A stretch of 64,000 bases of DNA from an uncultured Thermoleophilia bacterium (GTDB taxonomy: Bacteria > Actinomycetota > Thermoleophilia > UBA2241): positions 192,001 to 256,000 of the forward strand of contig CAVPCT010000002.1 of assembly GCA_963702475.1 (NCBI GenBank), given 5' to 3'. A program made the position numbers and the translations under genes. The notes under the pieces are model-generated. The model made no database searches and was not told where the DNA came from. It was given only the letters and a program-made list of their open reading frames with translations. The stretch's first letter is position 1. Every line of letters begins with the position of its first letter. Shown here piece after piece: positions 43,643 to 60,435 of the stretch.

Positions 43643-43643
<1 letters not shown>

Positions 43644-44887: not shown

Positions 44888-44944
44888 GCAGAAGCCGGAA
44901 GCTGCAGCAGAGGTCTTCTCTCTACTGCACAAATGCAGTCGGGC
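44888..44944 (+). repeat. 57-bp dispersed repeat, copy 1 (candidate attI-like site)
   Basis: 50/57 identical to 52698-52754; internal inverted repeat; ends GTCGGGC. Confidence 0.8.
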
Positions 44945-45037
44945 ATCCGCTCGTCGACCCGTGGCGGAGTGCGGAGCGCGGGGTGGACGTTGCCCTCTGG
45001 CCGTTGCGGTTCCGCAGCTTCTGGTTATACTCACGGT

Positions 45038-45271
45038 ATGAAGACAGCGATCTCCATACCCGACGACCTGTTCGCCGACGCCGAGGAGCTGGCGCGGGAG
45101 CTGAAGAAGTCGCGCAGCCGCCTCTACGGTGACGCGGTGCGCGAGTACGTCGCCCGCCACTCCGCCGAAAGCGTCACCGAGGCCCTCGATCGCCTCTGCG
45201 ATGAGGTCGACTGCCGCAGCGATTTCGCCGGTGCCGCTGCGCACCGCACCCTGGAGCGCTCCGACTGGTGA
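45038..45271 (+). CDS. RHH antitoxin (MazE-type partner), probably leaderless
   Basis: MKTAISIPDDLF..SRSRLY; TATACT 6 nt before ATG. Confidence 0.85.
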   Translation: MKTAISIPDDLFADAEELARELKKSRSRLYGDAVREYVARHSAESVTEALDRLCDEVDCRSDFAGAAAHRTLERSDW

Positions 45272-45609
45272 CCGCCCAGGGCGAGGTCTGGTGGGCCGAC
45301 CTGGCCGAGCCCTCCGGCTCCGAGCCCGGCTTCCGCCGCCCCGTCGTGGTCGTCCAGGGCGACGCCTTCAACCGCAGCCGTATCGGCACCGTCGTCTGCG
45401 TCGCGCTGACCAGCAACCTGCGCTGGGCCGACGCTCCCGGCAACGTCCTTCTCACCGCGCGCGCCACGGGCCTGCCCAAGGACTCGGTCGCCAACGTCTT
45501 GCAGCTCGTCACCCTCGACCGCGAGGCGCTGACCGAGCGCGTCGGCGCCCTGCCCGCGAAGAAGCTCGAGCTGGTGCTGCTCGGCATCGACATCGTCCTC
45601 GGGCGTTGA
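45268..45609 (+). CDS. mazF: PemK/MazF toxin
   Basis: GEVWWADL..GSEPGFRRPVVVVQ, SVANVLQ. Confidence 0.9.
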   Translation: MTAQGEVWWADLAEPSGSEPGFRRPVVVVQGDAFNRSRIGTVVCVALTSNLRWADAPGNVLLTARATGLPKDSVANVLQLVTLDREALTERVGALPAKKLELVLLGIDIVLGR

Positions 45610-45616
45610 CGCGATT

Positions 45617-45703
45617 GCCCAACAAGCGGAGCAAGCTGGCTCGCCGAACCTCCGCGGCGCAGCGGAGCCGCGGCGCTCGCAGCTTCTCCGCGGCGCGTCA
45701 GCC
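45617..45703 (+). mobile_element. attC-like site 1
   Basis: GCCCAAC-aagcggagCaagctg...cagcttctccgc-GTCAGCC. Confidence 0.75.
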
Positions 45704-45745
45704 CGAACCGATCCTGTTCACACACCCGTAAGGAGATCTTCCACA

Positions 45746-46492
45746 GTGGACATCCCGCGGATCTTCACCATCACTGAGAGTGCTCACCGCATCCACAACC
45801 CGATCACACCCGAGAAGCTCGCCACTCTCGGCGCGGCGCTGCGTCTGGAATCGGGGGCGCGAGTGCTCGACCTCGGCAGCGGTTCGGGGGAGATGCTGTG
45901 CACCTGGGCGCGCGATCACGGCGTCAGCGGCACCGGCATCGACATGAGCCGGTCGTTCACCGAGCAGGCGAGACGCCGTGCTGAAGAGCTCGGCGTCGCC
46001 GATCGAGTCAAGTTCATCCACGGCGATGCCGCCGGCTATGTCTCTGACGAGAAGGCCGGCGTGGCGGCCTGTCTCGGTGCCACCTGGATCGGCGGGGGAG
46101 TCGCCGGCACCATCGAGCTCCTGGCGCGCAGCCTGCGCCCCGGAGGGATCGTCCTCATCGGCGAGCCCTACTGGCGGCAGGTGCCGCCGACGGAAGACGT
46201 CGCCAAGGGGTGTCTTGCCGGCGCGATCTCCGACTTCCTCCTGCTTCCGGAGCTTCTCGCGTCGTTCGGCCACCTCGGCTACGACGTCGTCGAGATGGTC
46301 CTGGCCGACCAGGACGGCTGGGACAGATACGAGGCGGCCAAATGGCTCACCATGCGCCGCTGGCTTGAAGCCAATCCCGATGACGAGCTCGCGAAGGATG
46401 TTCGAGCCCAACTGACCGCGGAACCCGAGCGCTACGCCGCGTACACGCGTGACTACCTGGGCTGGGGTGTGTTCGCACTGATGCCGCGGTGA
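45746..46492 (+). CDS. Class I SAM-dependent methyltransferase (YjhP-like)
   Basis: VLDLGSGSG, GEPYW, YLGWGVF. Confidence 0.88.
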   Translation: MDIPRIFTITESAHRIHNPITPEKLATLGAALRLESGARVLDLGSGSGEMLCTWARDHGVSGTGIDMSRSFTEQARRRAEELGVADRVKFIHGDAAGYVSDEKAGVAACLGATWIGGGVAGTIELLARSLRPGGIVLIGEPYWRQVPPTEDVAKGCLAGAISDFLLLPELLASFGHLGYDVVEMVLADQDGWDRYEAAKWLTMRRWLEANPDDELAKDVRAQLTAEPERYAAYTRDYLGWGVFALMPR

Positions 46493-46572
46493 TGCGTTGG
46501 CGCATGAGGCGGATCGTCAACGCCGAAGGTCATTGGCGGTTGGTCTGGGCCCAGATTGGCTACACGCGGTCG

Positions 46573-46657
46573 GGCTGATGAAGGCATCAACCTGACGGCC
46601 AGAAGGTGGACTGACCCGAGGGCGCCTGCGCCGCAGGTCATGCCTACGACGTTAGGC
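46573..46657 (+). mobile_element. attC-like site 2
   Basis: aggcatCaacctgAcg / cgcaggtcatgcct with the two extrahelical bases; ends GTTAGGC. Confidence 0.8.
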
Positions 46658-46681
46658 CGACGAGACGCGGGGATGGAGTCG

Positions 46682-47182
46682 ATGGGTGACATTGATCGTG
46701 ACGTTCGCGAGCTTCGCGCAGCGCTCGCGATGGGCAGGATCCAGAACGCTTACGTCGCACTCGTCAAGTACATGTCTCGACTTCGCGCAAGGTACGCGGG
46801 CGAGCGAGGGGACCGCACAGTCTCCGGCCTCTATCAAGGCTACTTTGACATGACGTACTTCGCGCTCTTTCCGGATTGGTTCAGGGAGCGCGACTTGAAG
46901 GTGGCGGTGGTCTTCGACTACGCGAGCTTCTCTTTCCAGGCATGGTTGGCGGCCCGCAATCGCAGGGTGCAGAGGTCCTACTGGGAGCAACTGCGTGACG
47001 CTGGATACACCGAACACACGTTGGTCGAGCCGGGTGCCGGGATCGATGCCATCGTGATCTCGGTTCTTGCCGACGACTTCTCCCTTGCTGATGAGTCTGC
47101 TCTGACCAGGCGAATCGAGGCTGGTGTGGAGTCCTTCGAAGACGACATGCTTGCCGTGCTCAGTGAACTGAGCGGTGTGTGA
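46682..47182 (+). CDS. DUF7000-like hypothetical cassette protein
   Basis: YQGYFDMTYFA, WLAARNR; atypical lower-GC codon usage. Confidence 0.65.
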   Translation: MGDIDRDVRELRAALAMGRIQNAYVALVKYMSRLRARYAGERGDRTVSGLYQGYFDMTYFALFPDWFRERDLKVAVVFDYASFSFQAWLAARNRRVQRSYWEQLRDAGYTEHTLVEPGAGIDAIVISVLADDFSLADESALTRRIEAGVESFEDDMLAVLSELSGV

Positions 47183-47186
47183 CGCG

Positions 47187-47273
47187 GCCGAACAAGCAGG
47201 AAGCTGATGCGGCGCAGGCCTTCTTGACTCTGTGAGGCCTGCGCGCACAGCTCATCCGCATGGGACGTTGCGC
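47187..47273 (+). mobile_element. attC-like site 3
   Basis: GCCGAAC..agctgAtgc..gcgcaggcct/aggcctgcgc..cagct..GTTGCGC. Confidence 0.7.
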
Positions 47274-47399
47274 CGGGACTCGAGGGTCGCGGCGTGCGTG
47301 GACTCGTCTACGGCGCGTATCGCGTCTTCGCCTCCACGCTCGGGAGTTGCTGAGCTTCGAGCCCCGGCCGTGGCGGCCGGGTCTCGAAGGATGCCTCGG

Positions 47400-47753
47400 T
47401 CATCCCCAAGCTCCGAGGATCGCGCCCATGATCGTGAACGCGACCGCGTGGTAGCCGGCGTCGATGAACCACAGCGCCAATGGCCGGCGCTCGAAGAGGT
47501 ACGTGATCGCCATGCCGGCCGCCACCCAGGCGACGCCGGCCGCGGCGCCGGCGGCCGCGCCGAAGGCGACGCCCACATCGGCGCCGATGAAGAACGCAAG
47601 GGTCGTGGCTGCGACCACGGCGACGACCGCCGACAGGCCGAACACCACGGGGAGCTTGCGGGCGGCGAGGTCGGCGTCGCTGAGCGCCGCGGCGCACTGC
47701 CACGCTTTCGCGAAGGGCAGGGGTGAGTACAACATCCCACCCAGAAGGAACAT
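47400..47753 (-). pseudogene. DUF1761-like membrane protein, 5'-truncated
   Basis: YSPLPF..AW, LFERRP..IDAGY. Confidence 0.6.
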
Positions 47754-47832
47754 CGACGCCGCCGCAGCGGCGATCGCGCCCCCGTCTCCACACCGCTCAT
47801 CGCGCCTTCCGGGAAAGGCTCGCGTCCGAGGA

Positions 47833-47898
47833 AGTAAAAAACTCTTGACATGATGTCCGCATCGCTTTACAGTACGTCATGTCAAACATTCCTGACAT
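47833..47898 (+). promoter_or_regulatory. Sigma70-type promoter with flanking operator-like palindromes
   Basis: TTGACA(47845)-17 bp-TACAGT(47868); ATGTCA-N8-TGACAT at 47879-47898 and a related copy over the -35. Confidence 0.75.
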
Positions 47899-47947
47899 CA
47901 TGAGCAGCCCCCACAGTGGGGCGACTCGCAGCAAGGAGGCGATCCTG

Positions 47948-48400
47948 ATGCCGTTCGAAGAGAAGATCTCATGGGTCAACGCGGTGGTCATGGCCATCGT
48001 CCCGGTGGCCTATTTCGTGATCATGCTGGGCCGGCTGGGCGACACGCCGGCGGCCGACATCTCCTACCAGTGGCCGCTCCTCATCGCCATCGGGGCGTCG
48101 ATCGTCCTGACCATCGTCGGGTCGATCCTGGCCGGCATCGGCACCGGCATCTCGGCGGAACTGCGCGGCAGGTCCGCCTCCGCCGAGATCGATCGCAAGG
48201 ACGAGCGGGACAAGCAGATCAGCCGTCACGGCGACCTGATCGGCTTCTCCGTCTCCTCCTTCGGCATGGTCGGCGTGCTCGCCCTCACGATGCTCGAGTA
48301 CGAGTATTTCTGGATCGCCAGCGTCCTCTATCTCTCGTTCGTGGTCGGCACGCTGGTCGGATCGGTGGTCAAGATCGTCTCGTACCACCGGGGCTTCTGA
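47948..48400 (+). CDS. Membrane protein (DERD motif) partnered with XRE regulator
   Basis: AAGGAGG RBS; 4 TM helices; KDERDKQI. Confidence 0.75.
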   Translation: MPFEEKISWVNAVVMAIVPVAYFVIMLGRLGDTPAADISYQWPLLIAIGASIVLTIVGSILAGIGTGISAELRGRSASAEIDRKDERDKQISRHGDLIGFSVSSFGMVGVLALTMLEYEYFWIASVLYLSFVVGTLVGSVVKIVSYHRGF

Positions 48401-48402
48401 CC

Positions 48403-48624
48403 ATGGGCAAGCCGACCAGAGTGACCAACCGCATCCGGGCGCTCCGCTTCGCCGCCGGCGAGATGACGCAGGCCGATCTCGCCGACAGGGTGGGCGTCAC
48501 GCGCCAGACCGTCATCGCCATCGAGCAGGGCCGGTACTCGCCGTCGCTCGAGATGGCCTTTCAGATCGCGCGGGTGTTCGACCTCCCGCTCGACGACGTG
48601 TTCCAGTATCCGAAGGAGAAGTGA
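48403..48624 (+). CDS. XRE-family HTH regulator
   Basis: MTQADLADRVGVTRQTVIAIEQGRYSPSL. Confidence 0.92.
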   Translation: MGKPTRVTNRIRALRFAAGEMTQADLADRVGVTRQTVIAIEQGRYSPSLEMAFQIARVFDLPLDDVFQYPKEK

Positions 48625-49376
48625 TGGACACCTCCACAATCCGCGCCGAGCCCACGGTGCTGCTCCTCGGCGGCACCGGGCGCACCGGCGGGCGCGTCCT
48701 GACGCAGCTTCTGGGCCGCGGCATCCGTTTGCGCGCCCTGGTCCGGTCGGCCGAGCGGCTCCCGGCGGGCGTCGCGGGCGACCCGCTGCTGACGATCGTC
48801 GAGGCGGACCTGCTCTCCCTGAGCGCCGAACAGGTCAAGGAGCAGGTCGACGGCTGCGACGTCGTGATCTCCTGTCTCGGCCACACCATCAGCGCGAAGG
48901 GGGTCTTCGGGCGGCCGCGCGACCTCGTCACGCGGTCGGTGGAGCGGGTGTACCGGGCGACTTGGGAGCTGCGGCCTGCGCGGCCCGTGAAGCTCATCCT
49001 CATGAGCAGCGTCTCCGTGAACCGCCCGGGAGGCCTGGACACGCGGCGCGGGTGGTTCCAGCGCGCCGCCCTCTGGCTGCTGCGCGGCCTCGTGCCTCCG
49101 GCGCGGGACAACCAGCGCGCCGCCGACTTCCTCCACGACGTCGTCGAGGCGGCCGATCCCTCTGCGGAGTGGGTGGTCGTCCGGCCCGACACGCTGAAGG
49201 ACGGCGACGTGACCGAGTACGCGCTGCACGAGGGTCTCGTGGACGGCATGTTCCGCCCCGGCGAGACCAACAGGGCCAACGTCGCCCATTTCATGTGCGA
49301 GCTGGCGAGCGACGTCGGGGCGTGGGCGGCCTGGCAGGGCAAGCTCCCCGTGATCGTGAACGCATCGCCTGAGTGA
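48624..49376 (+). CDS. NAD(P)H-binding atypical SDR
   Basis: GGTGRTG, WVVVRP, RANVAHFM. Confidence 0.85.
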   Translation: MDTSTIRAEPTVLLLGGTGRTGGRVLTQLLGRGIRLRALVRSAERLPAGVAGDPLLTIVEADLLSLSAEQVKEQVDGCDVVISCLGHTISAKGVFGRPRDLVTRSVERVYRATWELRPARPVKLILMSSVSVNRPGGLDTRRGWFQRAALWLLRGLVPPARDNQRAADFLHDVVEAADPSAEWVVVRPDTLKDGDVTEYALHEGLVDGMFRPGETNRANVAHFMCELASDVGAWAAWQGKLPVIVNASPE

Positions 49377-49563
49377 CCCCGCCGCGGCGGTGACGGCCGC
49401 CGCGCGCAGCCCCATGGGCATGGCCGACGCCTGACGTCGCCGTGCTCGCCTCGAGGTCGTGTGTGGTGCACGACCGACCCATCCAACGACGAGCCTGGGC
49501 TTGCCATGCGCTGCTTCGGCCCGTCACGGCCGCCGGCGCGAGACCAGCCGGCAGCGGGAGAAG

Positions 49564-51894
49564 ATGACAGTGACGCAGAGCGAGAACAAGCAGAACAGGC
49601 GGGGCGCCGGAGCGGGCTCCAGCCTCACGGAACGCCTGGCGCGCACCAGCGCCCTCCACCCGTGGCGCACCATCGGCATCTGGACGGTGCTCATCGTCCT
49701 CGCCGTGGTCGCGGTCGGTACGCTGCTCGGCAGCGGCCTGACCTCGGACATCAAGTTCCGTGCCGACAAGCCGGACAGCCTGGTCGGCCAGGAGCTCCTC
49801 GAGCAGCGTCTCACCGGGCCGCGGCAGATCACCGACTTCGTCATCGTGCGCTCGGCCTCGGCCACAGTCGACGACCCCGCATTCAAAGCCTACGTCGACG
49901 ACCTCACCCGCCGGATCACCGGCCTGGGCCCGGCGGTCGTCAGGAGCGTGTCCACCTACTACCAGACCGGTGACCCCACCGTCGTCTCGAGAGACGAGCA
50001 CGCGACCCTTATCCCCGTGGTCATGGCCGGCACCATCGACGACGCCGTGAAGAACGCGGGCAAGCTGCACACGCTCGTCGTGGCGGCCCAGGGCCGGGGC
50101 TTCACCGTCGCGCTGACCGGCGACGCGAGCATCATGGAGATGTTCATGACGCTCGCCGAGAAGGACCTGGCGCGCGGCGAGATCCTCGGCGTCCCCGCCG
50201 CGCTGATCGTGCTCCTGATCGTCTTCGGCGCGGTGCTCGCGGCGTGCATGCCGCTGCTGATGAGCATAATCAGCATCGTCCTCGCGCTGGCCCTGACCGC
50301 GCTCATCGGCCAGGTCTACCCGATGACCGCCTTCGCGCTGAACATCCTCACCATGATGGGCCTGGCGGTGGGCATCGACTACACACTCTTCGTGATCAGC
50401 CGCTACCGCGAGGAGCGCGCCCGAGGCCTCGCGAAGATCGACGCCATCGCCGCGACCGGCGCCACCGCCAATCGCGCCATCTTCTTCAGCGGCATGACCG
50501 TGGTGCTCGCCATGGCCGGCATGGTCATCATCCCGCTCGACGTCATGATCAGCATGGGCATCGGCGTGATGCTGGTGGTGTTCACCACGCTGGTGACGGC
50601 GCTCATCGCCCTGCCGGCGCTGCTGAGCCTGCTCGGGGACCGCGTCGACGCCCTCCGCGTGCCCTTCATCCGCCGCCGCGCCACCCGCCGTCTGAGCGGC
50701 GGCTCCGGCATCTGGGAGCGCCTGGCGCACAGCATCATGCGCCGCCCGGTCGTCTGGCTCACTATCGCCGTCGTGGCGCTGCTCGTGGCGGCCGCCCCCG
50801 TGATGATGATGAAGAGCGGCGACAGCACCGCGAGCGCAGCCCATCTTCCCGACAGTGAGTACGCGAAGCAGGGCTGGGACATCCTGGACCGGGACTTCAC
50901 CCTGGGCAAGGCCAATCCGCTGCTGATCGTGATCGACGGGCAGGCGGCCTTTCCGCAGGTGAAGCGGGCCGTGGAGGACCTGCAGGCGGCCATGAAGAGC
51001 GATGGCGACTTCGGCCCGGCCCGGGTCACAACGAACGAGGCCGGGGACCTCACCCTCATCACCACGACGCTCGCCGGCGATCCTGCGGGCGAGGCCACCC
51101 AGTCCGTCGTGAAGCGCCTGCGCGAGGACATCGTGCCGCGGGCCGCGGGCGGACTGGCCGCGAAGGTGTACGTCGCCGGCACCACCGCGGGCGTCGTCGA
51201 CTACCTCGGCTTCTTCGGCGCCTGGATGCCGGTGGCGATGGCGGTGATCCTGAGCCTGAGCTTCGTGCTCCTGCTGGTCGCCTTCCGCTCCGTCGTCATC
51301 CCGGCGCAGGCGATCCTCATGAACCTGCTGTCGGTCGGAGCCGCCTACGGCCTCATGGTGCTGGTCTTCCAGAAGGGTGTCGGCGCCGGCCTCCTTGGCC
51401 TCACCCAGGTCGACACCATCGAGGCCTGGGTGCCGCTCTTCCTCTTCAGCCTGCTGTTCGGCCTCTCCATGGACTACCAGGTGTTCCTGCTCAGCCGCAT
51501 CAAGGAGCGCTACGACGAGACCGGCGACACCCGCGAGGCGGTCGCCCACGGCCTCGGCCGCACCGCCGGCATCATCACCGGCGCGGCCGCCATCATGGTG
51601 TGCGTGTTCGGCGGCATGGCCACCGGCGAGCTGGTGATGTTCCAGCAGATGGGCTTCGGCCTCGCCGTGGCGGTCTTCCTCGACGCCACGGTGGTGCGCA
51701 CCATCATCGTGCCCGCCGCCATGGAGCTGCTCGGAGACTGGAACTGGTACCTGCCGCGCCGGCTGCAGTGGATCCCCGATGTCAGTGTGGAGGGGCGCAG
51801 CCACGAGCCGGCGGCGCCGAAGGAGCCCCGTCACCCCCGGCACGAGCCCGGCATCACCGTCCCGCGGCCTTCTCTCGGAGGCGCGGAGCACTAG
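49564..51894 (+). CDS. MMPL family RND transporter
   Basis: GIDY..SRYREE, GLSMDY, DAT.VR...VPA. Confidence 0.92.
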   Translation: MTVTQSENKQNRRGAGAGSSLTERLARTSALHPWRTIGIWTVLIVLAVVAVGTLLGSGLTSDIKFRADKPDSLVGQELLEQRLTGPRQITDFVIVRSASATVDDPAFKAYVDDLTRRITGLGPAVVRSVSTYYQTGDPTVVSRDEHATLIPVVMAGTIDDAVKNAGKLHTLVVAAQGRGFTVALTGDASIMEMFMTLAEKDLARGEILGVPAALIVLLIVFGAVLAACMPLLMSIISIVLALALTALIGQVYPMTAFALNILTMMGLAVGIDYTLFVISRYREERARGLAKIDAIAATGATANRAIFFSGMTVVLAMAGMVIIPLDVMISMGIGVMLVVFTTLVTALIALPALLSLLGDRVDALRVPFIRRRATRRLSGGSGIWERLAHSIMRRPVVWLTIAVVALLVAAAPVMMMKSGDSTASAAHLPDSEYAKQGWDILDRDFTLGKANPLLIVIDGQAAFPQVKRAVEDLQAAMKSDGDFGPARVTTNEAGDLTLITTTLAGDPAGEATQSVVKRLREDIVPRAAGGLAAKVYVAGTTAGVVDYLGFFGAWMPVAMAVILSLSFVLLLVAFRSVVIPAQAILMNLLSVGAAYGLMVLVFQKGVGAGLLGLTQVDTIEAWVPLFLFSLLFGLSMDYQVFLLSRIKERYDETGDTREAVAHGLGRTAGIITGAAAIMVCVFGGMATGELVMFQQMGFGLAVAVFLDATVVRTIIVPAAMELLGDWNWYLPRRLQWIPDVSVEGRSHEPAAPKEPRHPRHEPGITVPRPSLGGAEH

Positions 51895-51908
51895 CTCGGA
51901 CGAGGGCA

Positions 51909-51944
51909 GAAGGGGCGGGGCGCCCGCGGGCGCCCCGCCCCTTC
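51909..51944. terminator. Hairpin between convergent genes
   Basis: gaaggggcggggcgccc-gc-gggcgccccgccccttc. Confidence 0.75.
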
Positions 51945-51991
51945 CGTCGTTCTCTGAGGCGGCCACCCGGCCGGCGTGACCGCGGCGAGGC

Positions 51992-52436
51992 TCAGGCCAG
52001 CGTCGCCTCCACGCTGAGCTCCACGTTGCCCTTGAGTGCGCCGCTGATGGGGCAGCCGTCCCTGGCGTCCTCGGCGGCTTGATTGAACGCCGCCTGGTCG
52101 ATGCCCGGTACCCGGCCCTTGACCGTGATCCGCGATGAGCCGGTCTTCCAGCCGCCCTCGATCTCCTTGAACGTCACCGTGACGCTGGTCTCGAGCTTCT
52201 CGGGCGGGGTGCCGGCCTCACCGAGGATGTGCGAGAGCGCCATGCTGTAGCAGCTCGCGTGCGCGTCGGCCACGAGCTCCTGGGGGCTGGTCTTGCCGTT
52301 CGAGCGCTCGGTGCGCGATGCCCAGGTCACGGGCAGCGGGCCGGCGGCGCCGCTGGTCACCAGCGAGACTTCTCCGGAACCCTGACCCAGTGAACCCTGC
52401 CAGACTGCGTCGGCGACGGCGTGGTGCGTCGGCCAT
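51992..52436 (-). pseudogene. osmC: OsmC peroxiredoxin with +1 nt directly after the start codon
   Basis: AVWQGSL..GSG, HASCYSMAL, CPISGAL; RBS-preceded ATG is out of frame. Confidence 0.75.
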
Positions 52437-52754: not shown

Positions 52755-52766
52755 GGAGGCCGCTCG

Positions 52767-53306
52767 ATGAGCACCGAGTGTGTCGTCCGGTTGGCCGACC
52801 CCGAGCACGTCGCCGCACTGCCCGCCATCGAGCGCGCGGCGGCCACCAGGTTCGGCGATTCGCTGCCTCAATCCGTGCTTTCGCATGTCACTTCGGTGGA
52901 CACCCTCGCGGCAGCACAACGTTCGGGTGTACTCTGGGTGGCTCTCGAATCAGCCTGCGACCCGATTGGATTCGCCGTTGCCAGCGTCTGCGGACGGCGC
53001 GTGCATCTCGACGAACTCGATGTGCTTCCTGAGCATGGTCGCAAGGGTGTGGGATCGGCGCTTGTCGAGGCAGTCGAGAACTGGGCGCTGCACAGCGACT
53101 ACATCGAAATCACCCTCACCACCTTCCGCGACGTCCCATGGAATGCGCCGTTCTATGCTCATATCGGTTTCGTGGTGATACCGGAGGGCGAACTCGATGC
53201 GGATCTCCTTCGAAGACTCTCAGATGAGTCTGCCATGGGTCTGGAACGTGTCAGACGGGTGGCGATGCGCAAGTCGCTTAGCCGTCTGACAGGCGCTTCA
53301 ACCTGA
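52767..53306 (+). CDS. GNAT acetyltransferase
   Basis: V.PEHGRKGVGSAL, TTFRDVPWNAPFY. Confidence 0.88.
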   Translation: MSTECVVRLADPEHVAALPAIERAAATRFGDSLPQSVLSHVTSVDTLAAAQRSGVLWVALESACDPIGFAVASVCGRRVHLDELDVLPEHGRKGVGSALVEAVENWALHSDYIEITLTTFRDVPWNAPFYAHIGFVVIPEGELDADLLRRLSDESAMGLERVRRVAMRKSLSRLTGAST

Positions 53307-53481
53307 CGCGACAGCTCCTCGGCTATCCTGAAAGCGCTCGGCGCGCAGGTTTGCCGCTCTTGAGGCGGAGCTGTCGATAGCCGAGATCGCGTCTATCGAA
53401 GAAGTCATGCCTCCTGACGTTGCCGCTGGGACGCGCTACTCTGAAGCCTCGATGCGGGGACTGGATCTGTGATCGTGCGCC

Positions 53482-53541
53482 GCCGAACAAAGGGTTGCAG
53501 CCGACGTTGCTCCGCAACGCGGCTGACTCCTAACGCTACCG
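53482..53541 (+). mobile_element. attC-like site 4 (classic ~60-bp form)
   Basis: GCCGAAC..cagccgAcgttgc-tcc-gcaacgcggctg..; degenerate right core GCTACCG. Confidence 0.75.
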
Positions 53542-53616
53542 GTACAGCAGGGACGTGGGGCCAGTGTCCACCACTCGGGTGTTGCGTCCGTCCGCATCGC
53601 GGGGGAGACTGAAGCC

Positions 53617-53847
53617 ATGCGCAACACCGACCTCGATATCTCCAAGCTCTCAGTCGCCGAGCGCATCCAGCTCGCGGAGGACCTCTGGGACAGCGTCGCC
53701 GCCGAGACCGGTGACCTGCCGCTCACCGAGGCGCAGGCCGCCGAGCTCGACCGCCGCCTCGCCGAGCTCGAGCGCGACCCCGAGGCCGGCGAGAGCTGGC
53801 CGGTCGTGCGCGCGCGCATCGAGCAGCGCCTCGACAGGGCCGGCTGA
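53617..53847 (+). CDS. Addiction module antitoxin component
   Basis: LSVAERIQLAEDLWDS..ELDRR..SW. Confidence 0.88.
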   Translation: MRNTDLDISKLSVAERIQLAEDLWDSVAAETGDLPLTEAQAAELDRRLAELERDPEAGESWPVVRARIEQRLDRAG

Positions 53848-53850
53848 GGC

Positions 53851-54153
53851 GTGCGCCTCGTCGTCCGCGAGGCGGCCGAGGCGGACATCGCCGAAGCCGC
53901 CCGTTGGTACGAGCAGCGCTCACCTGGCCTCGGATCGGAGTTCCTGCGCGCCGTCGACGTCACCCTCGCCGAGACCACGCGCATGCCCGAGCGTTACCCG
54001 GTCGTCCGCGGCAGAGCTCGCCGTGCTCTGCTCCGCCGTTTCCCCTAAGCGGTCTACTTTGTCGCCACCCCGGACCTCATCAGCGTCTTCGCTCGCCTGC
54101 ACGCGCGACGCGACCCGAGGCATTGGCGGGAGCGCAGCGAAGCTGACCGCTAA
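53851..54153 (+). pseudogene. RelE/ParE toxin with internal TAA (54046)
   Basis: WYEQRSPGLG.EF..RRFP*AVYF..HARRDP..W. Confidence 0.8.
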
Positions 54154-54180
54154 TCCGAACGTGCGTCGGGCGGGGTAGAG

Positions 54181-54576
54181 GTGGTCACGTCACTGCGACC
54201 CGTCGTGGAGGGCGACCAGGCGAGCATCCAGCGCTGGGCAGGCCTCGCCGCCGGCCACATGTCGCGCACGCATCGTCTCGATGACGCTGCCGATCGCCAC
54301 GCTCCCGCTGAGGGGCTCTGCTGGTACATCCTCGACGCTGACGGCCGCGACGTCGGCACCGTCTGGGTCGAACTGCCCCCCGGCTCAGGCGAAGCGGTCC
54401 TCGGCATCTTCCTCTGCGATGCCTCGCATCTCGGTCGCGGCATCGGCGCCGCCGCCGTCGAGCGCGCCATCGCCTGCTACCGCCGGGTCGGCTTCACGGT
54501 CACCGGCAGCGGCACCAGGTCGCTGCCCTCCGGCGAGACCGTCCCCTACTACAGCATGGTCCTCCCGCCGTGCTGA
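54181..54576 (+). CDS. GNAT acetyltransferase, probably internally deleted
   Basis: GRGIG directly followed by RAIACYRRVGF. Confidence 0.6.
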   Translation: MVTSLRPVVEGDQASIQRWAGLAAGHMSRTHRLDDAADRHAPAEGLCWYILDADGRDVGTVWVELPPGSGEAVLGIFLCDASHLGRGIGAAAVERAIACYRRVGFTVTGSGTRSLPSGETVPYYSMVLPPC

Positions 54577-54797
54577 CCCCCATCTCGCCGACGTTCCCCG
54601 ACCTGCCTCACAAGCGCGAGGTCGAGCACGCGCTCACGCAGGTCGAGACGTTTCCCGAGGCGGCGGAGCCGCTCCGCGACCGGGTGAGCCGGCGCCACTT
54701 GCACACGTTCCCCTGCGCGCTGCGCACCGATGAGGTCCGCGTCCTCGCGGTGGCGTATCAGAGGCGCCGGCCGTTCTACTGGGAGGATCGCCGGTGA
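54570..54797 (+). pseudogene. RelE/ParE toxin remnant
   Basis: FP..VLAVAYQRRRPFYW. Confidence 0.55.
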
Positions 54798-54801
54798 GTG
54801 C

Positions 54802-54891
54802 GGCTGACAAGCGGATCAAGCCGGCTCGCCGCAGCGCCGGCGGCCTCACGGGAGGCCGGCGCGCTCGCAGCTTATGCGCGGTGCGCTAGCC
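54802..54891 (+). mobile_element. attC-like site 5
   Basis: GGCTGAC-aagcggatCaagccg...cagcttatgcgc-GCTAGCC. Confidence 0.78.
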
Positions 54892-54896
54892 AGACG

Positions 54897-55340
54897 ATGG
54901 CGGTGCGCTTGCAGACCCGGGCGGCAACCCATGACGACACACCGTTTCTGGTGCAGCTTGCGTGCGAGGCGTACCGCGACGTGGTCACCCTCCAGTTCGG
55001 CAGCTGGAACGAGCGCGAGCAGGCCACTCGCTTCGCGGCCAAGGTCGCGCGGCTGCCGTTCGAGGTCGGTGTGCTCGCGGACCGGCCGATCGCTACGGTC
55101 TCGTCGTCGGTCCACGCCGATCGCGTCGTCCTGAACGAACTGCTCGTACTGCCGGAGTTCCAGAACCGCGGGTTCGGCAGCGAACTGCTCGGGCGCGAGA
55201 TCCAGCGCGCTCTGCAGCTGGGCCTCCCACTGCGGCTGCACACGCTCCGGCGAAACCGGGCGTTGCGCCTCTTCGAGCGTCATGGTCTCATCGTCACGGC
55301 ACAGGGAGAGGTCTTCATCGACATGGAACGTGCTGGCTGA
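54897..55340 (+). CDS. GNAT acetyltransferase
   Basis: PEFQNRGFGS, NRALRLFER. Confidence 0.85.
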   Translation: MAVRLQTRAATHDDTPFLVQLACEAYRDVVTLQFGSWNEREQATRFAAKVARLPFEVGVLADRPIATVSSSVHADRVVLNELLVLPEFQNRGFGSELLGREIQRALQLGLPLRLHTLRRNRALRLFERHGLIVTAQGEVFIDMERAG

Positions 55341-55424
55341 CATGCGGAGAGAGCTGGCTCGCCGCAGCGCCGACGCTGTCATCAGAAGTCGGCGCGCTCG
55401 CAGCTTGTCCGCGGTGCGTTTGAT
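55335..55424 (+). mobile_element. attC-like site 6
   Basis: GGCTGAC overlaps the stop codon; gagctggctcgccgcagcgccg...cggcgcgctcgcagcttgtccgc-GTTTGAT. Confidence 0.75.
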
Positions 55425-55470
55425 CTGGCGACGCTGACGAATCCCCAGACGCCTGGCCCGGAGGTAGCTG

Positions 55471-56067
55471 GTGCACCTTGTCCTTGATAACCAGCGAGAG
55501 GCAGCGGCCGAGACGCTCGCGGAGGCGTTCAGAAATGATCCGCTGCTCCAGGTTCTCGCGCCCGACCCACGACGGCGGGTGGCAGTCGGTCGTTGGTTCT
55601 TTCGGGTCAGCATCGATTACGGGATGCGATGGGGCCGCGTCTGGGGCGCTGACGACGCCGCGGCGGTCTCCATCTGGCTGCCGCCGGGCAGTCGCTGGAG
55701 CGCCCTGCGCTCGTTGCGCGTCGGGATGGCCGCCTTCCCGTTCCGGGTGGGGCCAGGACCGATGCTGGACGTCATACGAGTCGCCCCTGCTCTCGAACGA
55801 CTCCACCGTTCGGTTCGTGGGCCGCACTGGTATCTCATGGCGATCGGTACGAGACCGTCGAGGCAGGGCGAAGGTTTGGGCAGCGCGCTCGTCGCGGCTG
55901 GTACGTCGCAAGCGGACCTCGCAGGGCTGCCCTGCTACCTTGAGACGTCTACGCAGAGCGCTGTCGACTTCTATGTCAAGCGGGGGTTCGAGGTCGTTGG
56001 CCAGGAGGATCTCAACGGGCACATCCTGTTCGGAATGGTGCGCCCTACGGCATCGTTGCTCATCTGA
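55471..56067 (+). CDS. GNAT acetyltransferase (puromycin N-acetyltransferase-like fold)
   Basis: HWYL..IGTRP..QGEGLGSAL, YLET..FY..RGF. Confidence 0.85.
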   Translation: MHLVLDNQREAAAETLAEAFRNDPLLQVLAPDPRRRVAVGRWFFRVSIDYGMRWGRVWGADDAAAVSIWLPPGSRWSALRSLRVGMAAFPFRVGPGPMLDVIRVAPALERLHRSVRGPHWYLMAIGTRPSRQGEGLGSALVAAGTSQADLAGLPCYLETSTQSAVDFYVKRGFEVVGQEDLNGHILFGMVRPTASLLI

Positions 56068-56145
56068 CCGGCGCCTCAAGCTGACGTCCAGAAGGTCGTA
56101 GCGACGTGAAGGCGCACGGGGCAGCTCATCGGTCACGTGTTGGTC
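56062..56145 (+). mobile_element. attC-like site 7 (degenerate)
   Basis: ATCTGAC overlaps the stop; Caagctg...cagctc; ends GTTGGTC. Confidence 0.6.
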
Positions 56146-56214
56146 ACAGCCTTCTCCACTGGTTGCGAGGGTACGTTAGTGGTACCGTTGTCAGTAGCAC
56201 AGGAGGTAGCGTCA

Positions 56215-56490
56215 ATGGTATCAGTACCTGACATCGTCCCCATCACCGACCTCCGCCAGGACGCCTCGGGCGTGATCAAGCGCGCGTCCGACACGCAGCA
56301 GCCGGTGTTCATCACGCAGCGCGGCCGCGCCACCGCCGTCGTCGTCAGCGCCAGGGCCTACGAGCGCACGCAGCACGAGCTCGAGGTCCTGCGCCTGCTC
56401 GCACGCGGCGAAGCCGAGATCGAGGCCGGCTCAGGCCACACGCTCGCCGACGTGCTGGCCGAGGCCGACGGGCTGCTCGGCAGGCCGTGA
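56215..56490 (+). CDS. Phd/YefM antitoxin
   Basis: AGGAGG RBS; PITDLRQ..PVFITQRGRATAVVVS. Confidence 0.9.
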   Translation: MVSVPDIVPITDLRQDASGVIKRASDTQQPVFITQRGRATAVVVSARAYERTQHELEVLRLLARGEAEIEAGSGHTLADVLAEADGLLGRP

Positions 56491-56846
56491 GCCGCAGGGT
56501 CCTCTTCACCCCCGCCGCCCGTGAGCAGTTCCTTGCGGCGCTCGCCTACACCGCTGCCGCAGACCCGGCGGCAGCGCGGAGTCTGCGCGATCGCGCCGCG
56601 GCCTCGCTCTCCCGCCTCGCCGACTACCCGGGGTCGGGGCGCGCGCTGCCCGAGTTCCCCGACCTGTCGTTCCGTGCGGTCATCGTGCCACCGTACCGCT
56701 TCTTCTACCGCGTCATGGACGACGCGGTCTGGGTGGTCGCGGCGTGGCACTCGGCCAGCTCCCTGGCGAGCCGACGGACGTTGGGCGTGACTGACAAGCG
56801 GAGAAGCTGGCTCGCAGGCAGCTCTACGGTACACTTCGTAGCGTGA
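56487..56846 (+). CDS. RelE/ParE toxin
   Basis: L..YPGSGR.LPEFPD..PYRFFYRV..VAAWH. Confidence 0.85.
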   Translation: MSRRVLFTPAAREQFLAALAYTAAADPAAARSLRDRAAASLSRLADYPGSGRALPEFPDLSFRAVIVPPYRFFYRVMDDAVWVVAAWHSASSLASRRTLGVTDKRRSWLAGSSTVHFVA

Positions 56847-56877
56847 GCGCTGGCAGCTTGTCCGCGAGGCGTTAGGC
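56789..56877 (+). mobile_element. attC-like site 8
   Basis: GACTGAC-aagcggagaagctg...cagcttgtccgc-GTTAGGC. Confidence 0.78.
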
Positions 56878-56908
56878 GAACGAGCAGCGCTCAACAGGGG
56901 GCGAGTGC

Positions 56909-57379
56909 ATGCTGCCGCAAGCGGGACAGGGTCCATGGTGGGCGGCGTTGACGGTGTGGGGTGTCGTCAACTCCGTCAACGTGCTTCAGGCCCTCGGGTT
57001 CCTCTCCAGGGTTCGTTCCGGGGCCATGACGCTCAATCACCGTCTGGGCTACGTGATGATCGCACTCGCCGCGCCGACTCTGATCGCGCTGGTCGGTTAC
57101 GTGAAGTCCCGGGCGGGAGTCCTGACCTATCTCGGTCCGCTCGCGTACCTCGGTTTCGTGGCGTTGATGCTGGCGGTCGACTACATCGCTCCGGTGGAGT
57201 TCCGCTCACCGCCTCGCTACGTCATCCTTGTGCCCTATCTCGCGCTCTTCTTCGGCGCGATCCTCTTGATGGGCCTCCCGATGTACGAGCTGAACCGCTC
57301 GTACTGGCTGGTGACCGTCGTGACCAGCGCGTTGCTCCTTGCCTCCATGGTCGCGGCCATGCGTAAGGGAGTGGGCTGA
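56909..57379 (+). CDS. Hypothetical membrane protein (cassette)
   Basis: About 5 TM helices; bounded by attC-like sites. Confidence 0.7.
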   Translation: MLPQAGQGPWWAALTVWGVVNSVNVLQALGFLSRVRSGAMTLNHRLGYVMIALAAPTLIALVGYVKSRAGVLTYLGPLAYLGFVALMLAVDYIAPVEFRSPPRYVILVPYLALFFGAILLMGLPMYELNRSYWLVTVVTSALLLASMVAAMRKGVG

Positions 57380-57401
57380 CGAGACGCGCGGGTGGATCGT
57401 C

Positions 57402-57491
57402 GCCTGACAAGCGCATCGAGTTGGCTCGCAGTAAGCTCACCGCTGGACTGCATCGCGTGAGCGCTCGCAGCGTGTCCGCGGCGCGTTCGAC
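57402..57491 (+). mobile_element. attC-like site 9
   Basis: GCCTGAC-aagcgcatCgagttggctcgc...gcgctcgcagcgtgtccgc-GTTCGAC. Confidence 0.72.
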
Positions 57492-57542
57492 GCACGCCGT
57501 TTCTTTGCGGGCGGAGATGCAGCGAGAGGCGGGGAGGCCTGG

Positions 57543-57881
57543 ATGGCATCGGAATTGAGCTTCGTCGAGTTCGTCTGCGACCAGCTTCGTGACGCCGGCG
57601 AGCCGTCGTTTCGCAAGATGTTCGGCGAGTATGTGATCCACCTTGACGGCAAAGTCGTCGCGCTCGTGTGCGACGACCGCCTCTTCGTCAAGCAGACCGC
57701 CGGCGGGCGAGCCTTCCTCGGCGATCCGGTCGAAGCCCCTCCGTATCCCGGGGCCAAGCCGTACTTCCTGATCGGTGACGGACTCGATGATCATGCGTGG
57801 TTGAGCGCGCTGGTTCGCGTGACCACAGAGGAGCTTCCGCCGCCCAAGCCCAAGCGCGCGAGGCGTCCGCGCTCGGAGTAG
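57543..57881 (+). CDS. TfoX/Sxy N-terminal domain protein
   Basis: RKMFGEY, LVCDDRLFVK, PPYPGAK. Confidence 0.9.
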   Translation: MASELSFVEFVCDQLRDAGEPSFRKMFGEYVIHLDGKVVALVCDDRLFVKQTAGGRAFLGDPVEAPPYPGAKPYFLIGDGLDDHAWLSALVRVTTEELPPPKPKRARRPRSE

Positions 57882-58195
57882 CCGGCCTCGGACTGTCGCC
57901 ACGTCACGGGCAATCGCATCGAGCATCCGTCGCCCGACATGCCGGCGTCGAACAAGGGCGTCAACCTGACAACCACGCCGTAGACTGCGGAAGAGAAGTG
58001 CGTCGAACCCCGCCGCCCCGGGCGGCGCGCGCCCAACCAGGTGGTCGCACTTCCCTGCCCGATGCTCTGATGCGGCAGCGCTCCGCGCATCGGCGCGGAT
58101 CCCCGCGAACCTCCGTCTGCACGCGAGCGTCCCACGGGCAAGGGCACAGCCGGCGCAGCCGTTTCCGGCGTGCTCACTCCAGAAGGGGGACCGTG

Positions 58196-58936
58196 ATGGC
58201 ACTCAGGAACAGGTACGCTACCGCCGGACTCGTCGCGGCTCTCGCCCTGGCGCTCGGCGCGCTTGCGGGATGCGGCACTACCGCCACCACTGCCACGTCC
58301 ACCCAGGCAGGCGCCGCCGCCGGCACCGTGACCGCCTCCGGCATGGGCACCGCGCAGGCCGCGCCGGACACGGCCGAGATGTCCTTCGGCGTGACCACGA
58401 TGGCGTCCGACGCAAAGTCGGCACTCGACGACGCCTCCGCGGTCGCCGAGCAGATCGCCTCCGCGGTCAAGAAGCAGGGCGTCGCCGCCGAGGACATCCA
58501 GACGCGCGACGTCAGCGTCTACCCGCAGACGCTAGACCAGGACGGCAAGCAGGTCATCAGCGGCTACCAGGCCTCGCTCAGCGTGCAGGTCAAGGTGCGC
58601 GACATCGCCAAGCTCGGCGAGGTCATCTCGGCGGCGAACGCCGCCGGCGCCAACAGCATCAGTGGACCCGCGTTCACCATCGCCGATCCGGCGCCCGTCC
58701 GCGCGAAGGCGATCGACGAGGCCGTGGCCGACGCCCGCAAGAGCGCCGAGGCGATGGCGAAGGCGGCCGGCAAGAGCGTCGGAGAGGTGCTGAGCATGAG
58801 CTCAGGCGACGTGGGCCTGGTCTCCGTCCCGATGTACGGAGGGGGCGGCGACATGGCCGAGGCGGCCAAAGTGCCCATCGAGCCGGGCCAGCTCGACGTC
58901 ACGGCGAACGTGGTCGTGGTCTTCGAGCTCAAGTAG
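58196..58936 (+). CDS. SIMPL (DUF541) domain lipoprotein
   Basis: Lipobox LAGC; APD.A, GAN.ISGP.F, PIEPGQ. Confidence 0.88.
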   Translation: MALRNRYATAGLVAALALALGALAGCGTTATTATSTQAGAAAGTVTASGMGTAQAAPDTAEMSFGVTTMASDAKSALDDASAVAEQIASAVKKQGVAAEDIQTRDVSVYPQTLDQDGKQVISGYQASLSVQVKVRDIAKLGEVISAANAAGANSISGPAFTIADPAPVRAKAIDEAVADARKSAEAMAKAAGKSVGEVLSMSSGDVGLVSVPMYGGGGDMAEAAKVPIEPGQLDVTANVVVVFELK

Positions 58937-59204
58937 CCTTGCAGGGCTGAAGCGGGGCAAGCGCTCCGGTTCCTCACGACCCGTCGACACGAGGGCGGCC
59001 ACGGTGCCGCCCTCCTTGGCTGTTGGGCCACGGGCAACGGCGAGCGACTGTGCCTGCTCGCCGCCGTGGGACGGGCCGGCGGTGTCTCCTCACCTGCCCG
59101 ACGCTAAGCGAACGCAGGAGCAGGGAACGAGTCTGTCGACATCATCTGGATGCGCGACCCTCGGACTTCTCACCTGCGGCGCGCCTGACCTGAAGGCGGC
59201 CCTC

Positions 59205-59574
59205 GTGGAGCTCGGTGCGTTCCCGGTGAGTCTCAACGTGCGGGACATCGCAGCGTCCGCGCGTTCTACGAGAGGCTCGGTTTCACTCCCGTCATGGGTG
59301 ATGCGGATCAGGGGTGGCTCATCATGCGCAACGCCCGGACCACCCTCGGGTTGTTCCGGGCGATGCTCGAGAGCACCACCCTCACCTGTGACCCCGGCTG
59401 GGACGCAGAGGCGAACGAACTCAGCTCGTTCGCCGACGTCCGCGAGATCCAGCGCGACCTGAAGGCTGCCGGAGTCCAACTCGACAGCGAGGTGGATGAG
59501 TCGGGGCAGGGCCGGGAAGCCTCGTGCTCCACGACCCCGACAGCACCCCGATCCTTGTCGACCAGCACGTGTAG
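59205..59574 (+). pseudogene. VOC/glyoxalase family protein, frameshifted
   Basis: ELGAF.VSLNVRDI / FYERLGF / LGLF..PGW..DVREIQ / ILVDQHV across different frames. Confidence 0.7.
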
Positions 59575-59775
59575 CGCGCGGGTCGGGTGGACTTCGCGGT
59601 CGTGCCGCGCGTCGCCCAACAGGCGCGTCGACCTGATGCCGGCGCTGAGGAGGCGCTGGCCGAGCAGCTGGTGCGCACCAGGCCATGGAGGGAGTCGCAG
59701 CAGAGGGGTGGCCGGTCCGTCCGACAAGCGGATGCGTAGCGTCCATGCACCTCTGCGATGTCGAGAGGAGCGCTG

Positions 59776-60174
59776 ATGGCTCATACCTGCCGAACCGGTG
59801 GATGCCTCTGCGGGGCGGTCCGGCTTGAGATCTCGGGCGAGCCGTATCGAGTGGGCATTTGCCACTGTCTGGATTGCCGCAAGTATCACGGCGCGGTCTT
59901 CAGCACCTTCGCCGTCTTTCCAGCCGATGCAGTCGCGGTCACAGGCGAAACGAGGAGCTATCGCGACCGGCATTTCTGTCCTGTCTGCGGAGCCTCGGTG
60001 TTCAGCTACTCCGCGGACGAGATCGAGGTCCCTCTGGGCGTCTTCGACGTGCCAGATCAGATGAGGCCGACCTACGAGATCTGGACCAGGCGTCGCGAGG
60101 GCTGGCTGCCTCCCTTCGCTGTCGCCCGCCGCTTCGACGGCGATCGGGAGGGCACCGGAAGGGCGGAGCCCTGA
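59776..60174 (+). CDS. GFA (Mss4-like) family protein
   Basis: GGCLCG, CHCLDCRK, RHFCPVCG. Confidence 0.9.
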   Translation: MAHTCRTGGCLCGAVRLEISGEPYRVGICHCLDCRKYHGAVFSTFAVFPADAVAVTGETRSYRDRHFCPVCGASVFSYSADEIEVPLGVFDVPDQMRPTYEIWTRRREGWLPPFAVARRFDGDREGTGRAEP

Positions 60175-60435
60175 CAAGACCACTGCGTCGATGGAGAGGG
60201 TGGAACGGGGCTTCGTCTGGGCGACGTTGCAGGGGAGAGGCTCGGTGGCCACGGCCGCATGGAGTCGGTCGTCGACGCCCGCGCCAGCCCCATGGCTCCG
60301 ATCACCGCCACGAACAAGACGTCTTCGGGAGCCGTCAGGGAGCGATCTCATCCGCCGTCCGCGACGGCGGCTGCCTTCGCCGCGACGAGGCGCTGGGTGG
60401 TTCCAGTTCGGTGCTCGCGCGGCGTGAGCGGTCGA

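Follow-up and report, generated by a model that had tools for sequence, protein, structure and literature searches.

We report here on a gene-cassette array in a 64-kb window of DNA (the whole stretch that was analyzed: 64,000 nucleotides, positions 192,001 to 256,000 of contig CAVPCT010000002.1, assembly GCA_963702475.1) from an uncultured Thermoleophilia bacterium of the phylum Actinomycetota. A sequence-only reading of this window had proposed that its short open reading frames (ORFs) are followed by attC sites, the recombination sites of integron cassettes, and that together they form a sedentary integron or a cluster of attC sites lacking integron integrases (CALIN). The array lies on a 414-kb contig of a 4.3-Mb, 70% GC metagenome bin of nine contigs, and the closest loci around its neighbor gene pntB all come from uncultured Thermoleophilia or Actinomycetota; the phylum guessed in that reading was therefore right. 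We conclude with high confidence that the region from 44882 to 60174 represents the cassette array of a sedentary chromosomal integron whose integrase gene has been lost, that is, a CALIN. The observations that carry this conclusion, and with it the earlier proposal, are the family of sites, their structure and covariation, the signature at cassette boundaries, the linkage to the integrase gene intI in relatives and the shuffling of cassettes between genomes.

Organization of the locus

Coordinates refer to the window, and features lie on the plus strand unless stated otherwise; L### denotes loci and G### genomes of relatives, G000 being the genome of the window. Upstream of the array lies pntB (NAD(P) transhydrogenase beta, 42258-43643; Pfam PNTB, E 6e-177), the conserved anchor beside the integron of relatives. 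It is followed by a weak HD-domain ORF (43783-44643; Pfam HD, E 6e-5) at the place where relatives carry intI, and by a 70-aa ORF without a Pfam family (44643-44855). Relatives have preserved, downstream of intI, the 3' part of the latter and the DNA up to the next feature, an attI-like element, with 85% identity between 44708-44939 and L022 13095-13326 and 78% between 44754-44945 and L105. This attI-like element (copy a, 44882-44940; repeat family D9) contains four TGCAG boxes and ends in ...ATGCAG|TC, with a candidate crossover after G 44938.

Copy a heads the first sub-array, which comprises three cassettes. Cassette 1 (44939-45697) encodes an RHH antitoxin (45038-45271) and a MazF/PemK toxin (45268-45609), both recognized by Pfam, and copies of it with 87-91% identity occupy other array positions in L107, L109 and L104. 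Its attC site s1 (45617-45703) has the outer cores R'' GCCCAAC and R' GTCAGCC. Cassette 2 (45698-46651), with homologues in L108, L109 and L104, encodes a Pfam-supported S-adenosylmethionine (SAM)-dependent methyltransferase (45746-46492) and carries site s2 (46573-46657; R'' GGCTGAT, R' GTTAGGC). Cassette 3 (46652-47267) encodes a DUF7000 protein (46685-47182; Pfam E 4e-37) and has a 73% identical stretch in L017; its site s3 (47187-47273; R'' GCCGAAC, R' GTTGCGC) is the last of this sub-array. A block of non-cassette genes follows at 47274-52691, named by Pfam as DUF1761 (minus strand), an ORF, an NAD(P)-binding protein, an MMPL transporter and OsmC (minus strand).

The second sub-array begins with copy b of the attI-like element (52692-52750; D9), which is 88% identical to copy a and has its candidate crossover after G 52748. 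Next to it lies a GNAT cassette (52749-53366; Pfam) with an ORF at 52743/52767-53306 and an attC at 53284-53366 (R'' GTCTGAC), which is 82-85% identical in the L017 and L102 arrays. A short marginal attC-like site, s4 (53482-53543; bottom-strand fold z -2.85), stands after a gene fragment. The toxin-antitoxin cassette beyond it (53533-54153) holds an Unstab_antitox gene (53617-53847) and a truncated ParE-like ORF (53851-54048), both assigned by Pfam, and is 89-90% identical to L106 9482-8862 and L019 10046-10634. The segment at 54161-54891 is composed of two fused parts, with a GNAT gene (54181-54576), an ORF (54570-54797) and site s5 (54802-54891; R'' GGCTGAC, R' GCTAGCC); they match separate places in relatives, 54161-54616 in L109 and 54617-54902 in L104 and L106.

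Two further GNAT cassettes (both by Pfam) come next, one at 54897-55424 (ORF 54897-55340, site s6 55335-55424) and one at 55471-56145 (ORF 55471-56067) that ends in the marginal attC-like s7 (56062-56145). A Phd/YefM antitoxin (56215-56490) and a ParE toxin (56487-56846), supported by Pfam, share the cassette at 56215-56877 with site s8 (56789-56877), and copies with 76-90% identity are found in the arrays of six relatives. The next cassette (56909-57491) encodes a 156-aa ORF (56909-57379) that matches no Pfam family and looks membrane-like by eye, and carries site s9 (57402-57491). In the TfoX_N cassette (57543-57970; Pfam, ORF 57543-57881) only a left half-site of repeat family D4 (57946-57970) is left, the right half being lost. 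The degenerate distal part (58047-60174) contains, by Pfam, a SIMPL lipoprotein (58196-58936), a broken ORF region (59193-59580) and GFA (59758-60174). Here 58047-58937 is 85% identical to the L102 array and 59193-59580 is 68-70% identical to L109 and L020.

The cassette pool thus read consists of toxin-antitoxin pairs, acetyltransferases, a methyltransferase and small proteins of unknown function, and no resistance gene was noticed in it. Pfam agreed with the cargo named from the letters as far as the toxin-antitoxin pairs, the GNATs (four), TfoX and GFA are concerned; the VOC label did not stand, as both ORFs at 59004-59776 gave no Pfam family at E<=0.01.

attC sites at the ends of the ORFs

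Sites were searched with a covariance model, R1, made from 73 attC sites (68 from relatives and five from the window), mostly of integrase-linked arrays. With filters off and a support threshold of E<1e-3, R1 found eight sites in the 64-kb window, all on the plus strand and all at, or shortly past, the 3' end of a plus-strand ORF: 54800-54892 (s5, 85.4 bits), 55333-55425 (s6, 83.1 bits), 45615-45704 (s1, 79.7 bits), 56787-56878 (s8, 71.7 bits), 57400-57492 (s9, 67.2 bits) and, not in the training set of the model, 46571-46658 (s2, 34.9 bits), 47185-47274 (s3, 24.0 bits) and 53282-53367 (23.5 bits). A repeat search of the window also placed families D1-D5, of 84-90 nt, at the positions named in the sequence-only reading. 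That reading had listed nine full sites, seven of which R1 upholds at this threshold. The other two, at 53482 (s4; 15.3 bits, E 0.12) and 56062 (s7; 14.2 bits, E 0.22), score like unrelated places of the window and are therefore marginal, and the site at 53282-53367 had been missed. Of the left half-sites it had named, two (57946 and 59613) are members of repeat family D4, and the third, 59717, reaches only 11.5 bits with R1. R1 gave no match at 54100-54200, where the downstream attC of the toxin-antitoxin cassette is missing, none at E<0.4 in the non-cassette block, and no full attC in the distal part, which holds the half-sites 59613 and 59717.

GC-rich imperfect palindromes directly after ORFs might also be repetitive extragenic palindromic (REP)-like or terminator-like sequences unrelated to integrons, which would act as terminators or stabilizers of mRNA, and folding energy alone indeed fails to separate most of the sites from shuffles. 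However, the repeats are confined to one locus in 4.3 Mb: R1 at E<=1 over the whole genome returned the window sites and one degenerate copy on another contig (C3:877835), and a profile of the five most similar sites found those five, site 3 weakly and one weak match on C3. With only one further degenerate copy in the genome, the attC family is not REP-like, and the dispersal that characterizes REP palindromes or bacterial interspersed mosaic elements (BIMEs) is not seen. Moreover, a terminator scan of 44600-60400 found none at the sites (three terminator-like matches, 4.3 being expected). Rfam did not recognize the sites: at gathering thresholds the whole window gave one tRNA and nothing more, and at E<=10 the region 44000-61000 gave four chance-level matches, none of them at the sites.

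The solitary copy at C3:877835-877908 (R1 23.7 bits) has the inner arms of the family without RYYYAAC or GTT cores and is possibly what remains of a cassette that lay outside the array.

Secondary structure and core sequences

The alignment of the 73 sites reveals a common fold in which an R box of 7 bp and an L box of 6 bp are followed by an unpaired base, another 6 bp, a second unpaired base and a further stem. In this structure 84.0% of the alignment cells are paired, compared with 21-41% when the 3' partners are slid by one to three columns. Double changes occur in 18 of the 24 pairs, and the five measures we used were reached by none of 500 shuffles. The L-stem taken by itself has double changes in 15 of 17 pairs and 85.7% of its cells paired; for example, 47 sites have GC and 19 have CG at pair 19-85, the counts being 60 and 11 at pair 25-80. 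The sites are therefore both detected by a covariance model and held together by covarying stems, the check that had been suggested for them.

The two unpaired bases, at alignment columns 22 and 30, are six pairs apart on the left (R''-L'') arm. On the top strand, column 22 is an unpaired C and column 30 is A or G, likewise unpaired, so that the bottom strand would present G and then T or C. This is the canonical attC layout of extrahelical bases in the sub-family that contains site 2, which does read aggcat-C-aacctg-A-cg ... cg-caggtc-atgcct as described before; its extra C and A on the left arm correspond to G and T on the bottom strand. In the major sub-family, two mismatched pairs come after the second unpaired base: the column pairs 32-75 and 33-74 are unpaired in 64 and 61 of the 73 sites, respectively.

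The outer cores were compared in 150 sites of relatives. Of these, 126 have AAC at the end of R'' and 128 have GTT at the start of R'; the consensus sequences, G-Y-C-Y-A-A-C and G-T-T-R-G-R-Y, fit RYYYAAC and GTTRRRY. Such cores at both ends of the repeats speak against terminator-like or REP-like palindromes and for attC sites.

Cassette boundaries and shuffling

Integron integrases exchange strands at G|TT, so that a cassette starts with the final six bases of its own R', which come to lie within the site upstream. We therefore compared the four variable positions of each R'' with the R' of the upstream site, of the same site and of the downstream site in the arrays of relatives. All four are complementary to the upstream R' in 86 of 130 cases, compared with 14 of 150 for the site's own R', 3 of 130 for the downstream R' and 8% of random pairs, and the observed mean of the upstream match was reached by none of 5000 permutations. 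In the window, three of nine upstream pairs score four of four (s2 with the R' of s1, s6 with that of s5, and s9 with that of s8) and four of nine score three of four; in addition, GTCGAAC, the R'' of half-site 57946, exactly complements GTTCGAC, the R' of the preceding site s9. Upstream-core matching is what cassette recombination at G|TT would leave behind, and no terminator or REP model predicts it. We consider it extremely improbable that these repeats are palindromes unrelated to integrons.

Copies of 12 of the 15 cassette segments of the window, 68-91% identical, are present in the arrays of relatives at other positions or in another order; the segments without a copy in the loci examined are the GNAT cassette at 55471, the ORF at 56909 and GFA. 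The MazEF cassette is the first after the attI-like element here and lies ~17.5 kb from intI in G036. The order MazEF to methyltransferase is shared by the window and G036, is reversed in L109, and the two cassettes are apart in L104. A fixed gene order in relatives would have spoken against a cassette array; the same cassettes were found at other positions and in other orders.

Public sequencing runs were also searched for the array. In no run did the share of the sampled words of 52692-57500 exceed 0.17, and mapping of contigs at 90% likeness from four public runs yielded only short ambiguous pieces from related organisms. In these four sediment or freshwater runs the methyltransferase cassette (45648-46695) had a summed contig depth of hundreds to more than 1000, the remainder of the array being mostly at depth 0-200, and the contigs of all four diverge directly past the methyltransferase stop codon at 46494. 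The methyltransferase gene thus seems to be common in other contexts in those metagenomes.

The integron integrase of relatives

As had been stated from the letters, the window has no integrase: tblastn with the IntI of a relative gave nothing better than E 0.79. Across the nine contigs of the genome, the NCBIfam model TIGR02249, by which we called integron integrases at a cut-off of 265 bits, reached 80.9 bits at best with a Xer-like protein, and tblastn found only Xer-like matches on other contigs.

We then turned to 89 species-representative genomes of the family, in 47 of which TIGR02249 exceeds the cut-off, mostly at ~470 bits; some carry two copies of intI. In an even sample of 401 genomes across the class, 51 were above the cut-off (by family, 41/79 in f1, 11/61 in f4, 1/24 in f6 and none in the other nine families). 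The IntI of one relative aligns over its full length to the Vibrio integron integrase structure 2A3V (E 1.7e-86). The alignment covers the segment between the catalytic boxes, including the stretch ...LPxALxxKYPxAxxEWxWQxLFP..., which we take to be the IntI-specific segment.

In L022, L097 and L098, intI directly adjoins pntB, and in L014 only a C-terminal fragment of intI remains beside it. The downstream flanks of the relatives' intI are filled with the same attC family on the intI strand, and the upstream flanks of eight intI loci from two genera gave no attC profile match. All 158 R1 matches in 15 loci of relatives are on the strand of intI and pntB, an orientation that further contradicts unrelated palindromes, and in the nine of these 15 loci that have a full-length intI, every R1 match is downstream of it. 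The arrays can be long, with at least 32 sites over ~23 kb in G036, at least 33 in G033, and at least 48 matches in some genomes of the family-wide scan. The sequence-only reading had suggested from the likeness of several sites that the attCs are endogenous, and this is borne out by a true integron integrase that relatives carry at this chromosomal locus, adjoining arrays with the same attC family. The array of the window demonstrably derives from an integron that is shared across the lineage and keeps a constant place beside pntB.

R1 matches at E<=1e-6 occur in 77 of the 89 family genomes, namely 46 of the 47 with IntI and 31 of the 42 without. Half of the latter (21/42) hold three or more R1 matches, which indicates that an integrase-less array is common in the family.

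The attI-like elements

The 59-nt element heads both sub-arrays (44882-44940 and 52692-52750). Eight loci of relatives have a homologue that either follows intI closely or precedes the first attC; there the element likewise holds four TGCAG boxes, and both window copies match the resulting profile. In six of the eight loci the element ends in AGTT|RGGC, in agreement with the GTTRRRY core; L014 has AGCTAG and L017 TTGTTG instead, and the window copies both end in GTC and not GTT. Homology to the cassettes of relatives begins exactly at the last G of the element: that of cassette 1 starts at 44938, equivalent to L107 1288, the G of R' of the attC L107:1281-1370, and that of the GNAT cassette at 52748, equivalent to L017 16181, the G of R' of the attC L017:16101-16188. 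A crossover at this place is the reason why we read the element as attI, and the alignments make it a candidate attI with insertion at G|TT.

Two other D9-like elements are present elsewhere in the genome, on contig C5 (C5:952240-952321 and C5:918064-918156, both on the minus strand; nhmmer E 7e-9 and 2e-6). They resemble the 5' two-thirds of the element and have no GTT end, so that these two-thirds may be a promoter or leader module, and not part of the recombination site, which the integron and the C5 elements may share. One of the C5 elements stands just upstream of a 122-aa hydrophobic ORF that looks membrane-like by eye.

A scan with the sigma-70 consensus, which is perhaps not suited to this phylum, gave nothing at the attI-like elements; visual inspection of the alignment showed a TAnnnT-like hexamer upstream of the element. 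The scan of 44600-60400 produced one promoter-like match, at 47845. We rejected a structured-RNA reading of the element, the consensus fold of which has -1.9 kcal/mol with one of seven pairs covarying.

Both copies contain an ATG, at 44933 and 52743 (AAATGCAGTC), which is in frame and without intervening stops with the first cassette ORF; the ORFs are 44873-45271 and 52743-53306. This ATG is not conserved in all relatives, and the match of frames may be chance.

Split array, decay and loss of the integrase

The array of the window consists of two sub-arrays, each with its own attI-like head, separated by 5.4 kb of non-cassette DNA. The MMPL gene has orthologues of 67-77% identity in G053, G060 and G036, each on a contig different from that of the integron, and the position of such orthologues away from integrons in five relatives shows that the block between the sub-arrays moved in. 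The G033 array (L116 / L106, G033:C8 ~61.7-73.0 kb) has an 11-kb stretch without attC matches between two runs of sites, which resembles the split of the array in the window; a profile search found no attI-like copy at the second run.

Signs of decay are spread over the window: the two marginal sites, three half-sites (57946, 59613 and 59717), the attC missing at ~54150, the fused cassette segments, the truncated ParE and the broken ORF. GTT has become GTC at both attI-like crossovers, compared with GTT in relatives. The cores of ten window sites, two marginal ones included, have changed as well. GTT is kept in six of ten, and AAC in three of ten left cores versus 126 of 150 in relatives (Fisher p 4e-4), the other cores showing GAC, GAT, GTC or GCT. 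Seven of the ten left cores (46573, 53284, 54802, 55335, 56062, 56789 and 57402) read GAC or GAT, whereas a G at this position occurs in 10 of 150 sites of relatives (Fisher p 4e-6). Two of these changes postdate the divergence from homologous cassettes of relatives and two are shared with them. The changed position pairs with the changed T of GTT, and some pairs are therefore compensated; the C of GTC at both attI-like ends is the base that matches it. Random decay does not obviously account for repeated change at one paired core position.

The ancestral place of intI beside pntB is occupied by the weak HD-domain ORF. L019 has this ORF as well: immediately after its pntB lies a stretch 79% identical to 44172-44526. 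The replacement of intI by other DNA, with no remnant, together with the decay, points to loss of the integrase.

Several points weigh against our interpretation. The detection of sites depends on a model of the lineage's own attC family, five of whose 73 sites come from the window, and Rfam has no match to them; two of the sites listed earlier (53482 and 56062) are at noise level with R1. Single-sequence folding of the bottom strand gave z from -2.99 to +1.04, with three of ten sites below -2, although in a 70% GC genome the folding energy of a single site is uninformative. The major attC sub-family has a small internal loop in place of the second extrahelical base. Elements resembling the attI-like one, without its GTT end, exist elsewhere in the genome, and the public contigs are too weak on the array, with a few joints near attC ends (for example, 46655 to 53625). 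Finally, the bin is 93.8% complete with 6.5% contamination, and an integrase may lie on unassembled DNA.

If so, the array could be part of a working integron whose cassettes are still mobile, the integrase being encoded on unassembled DNA or acting in trans from another replicon or from co-resident relatives. GTT is retained in R' of those six of ten window sites, GAC variants are found in IntI-bearing relatives too (9/150), and some family genomes carry a second intI, all of which would be in keeping with continued activity. Nevertheless, nothing above 80.9 bits was found on the nine contigs, other DNA fills the place of intI, and the half-sites, the fused cassettes, the GTC at both attI-like ends and the scarcity of AAC in the left cores are not what a working system would be expected to show. 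We consider a working integron unlikely and prefer an array that persists after loss of its integrase gene. With no integrase here, such an array would be frozen; we infer recombination activity in the relatives, and inactivity here, from their sequences.

Relation to known integrons

In relatives, the order would be pntB, intI, a short conserved region ending in attI, and tens of cassettes. All these parts are on one strand, and intI is therefore co-oriented with the cassettes, in the arrangement called "inverted integrase". IntI would act at G|TT on the bottom strand of an attC in its folded form and recombine it with attI or a second attC, by which a promoterless cassette would move as a unit of a gene and its own attC. 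Expression may start from a promoter near attI, and the toxin-antitoxin cassettes may have a stabilizing role.

A CALIN is said to be two or more attC sites with no integron integrase nearby. The window has eight sites at E<1e-3, and no intI was found in the window or the genome. Like CALINs, as the term was defined with IntegronFinder in the relevant part of Cury et al. 2016 (PMC4889954), it holds co-oriented attC sites and cassettes, no intI nearby or in the genome, and signs of degradation. It differs in its Actinomycetota host, in its two attI-like elements and in being split by 5.4 kb of non-cassette genes. The kind of element, a cassette array in the CALIN state, is known; the host lineage is unexpected.

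The integrons of the relatives resemble the Vibrio cholerae superintegron in their conserved chromosomal location, their tens of cassettes with toxin-antitoxin cassettes among them, one dominant homogeneous attC family, and an IntI that matches 2A3V over its full length. They differ in belonging to Thermoleophilia and not Gammaproteobacteria, in the co-orientation of intI with the cassettes and in the internal loop that replaces the second extrahelical base in the major sub-family, and the window differs further in having no integrase. Inverted-integrase integrons are described from Treponema and others in parts of two papers (PMC4889954, PMC13323075), the group being paraphyletic according to the relevant passage of Cury et al. 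(PMC4889954). The relatives share with them intI and attC on one strand and an array downstream of intI, which is a likeness of arrangement. Integron components in an actinobacterial host also bring to mind the mobile class 1 integrons on Corynebacterium plasmids, which are recent acquisitions on mobile elements with resistance cassettes. In contrast to these, the element described here lies on the chromosome, is shared across the lineage and has an attC family of its own, and no resistance genes were noticed in it.

In the parts concerned with this phylum, two papers report that it holds almost no integrons and propose an unknown mechanism that hampers their establishment (PMC4889954, PMC9024848). 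Similarly, the relevant part of a 2026 permafrost study finds integrons virtually lacking in Actinomycetota, with ~0.2 integron-type recombinases per genome. A full-text literature search gave no description of integrons in Thermoleophilia, although supplementary tables may list such elements. Papers that contain both "integron" and "Thermoleophilia" were, by their titles and the starts of their abstracts, mostly surveys of resistance genes or communities, and none was on Thermoleophilia integrons. Annotation pipelines already name the relatives' proteins "integron integrase"; the data on these integrons are public, and it is a printed description that seems to be missing.

Taken together, the window and its relatives represent a high-GC actinobacterial lineage in which complete integrons of at least 30 cassettes are common and old. 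We lean, by a modest degree, toward the view that this uncultured Thermoleophilia family possesses an ancestral, largely vertical sedentary integron beside pntB, with a co-oriented integrase and its own attI and attC family, which is present in most species (attC in 77/89, intact intI in 47/89; arrays of 30 to at least 48 sites) and has lost its integrase repeatedly. If a lineage-wide, vertically inherited integron is indeed what we see, the textbook lack of integrons in Actinobacteria would reflect the sampling of cultured, complete genomes and not an incompatibility. A natural set of IntI, attI and attC from a Gram-positive high-GC host makes the question of host range testable. The 21 of 42 IntI-negative genomes with at least three sites offer natural material on the decay of arrays after integrase loss.

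Neighboring features

Two features near the array were seen in passing. Directly after the MMPL gene, 51895-51958 is an inverted repeat with 32-nt arms, no spacer and 81% complementarity, which has the look of a strong hairpin. Bordering the distal end of the array, 60436-63750 (minus strand) encodes a 1104-aa protein with repeated immunoglobulin-like, lamin-tail and He_PIG domains, which is probably a surface protein.

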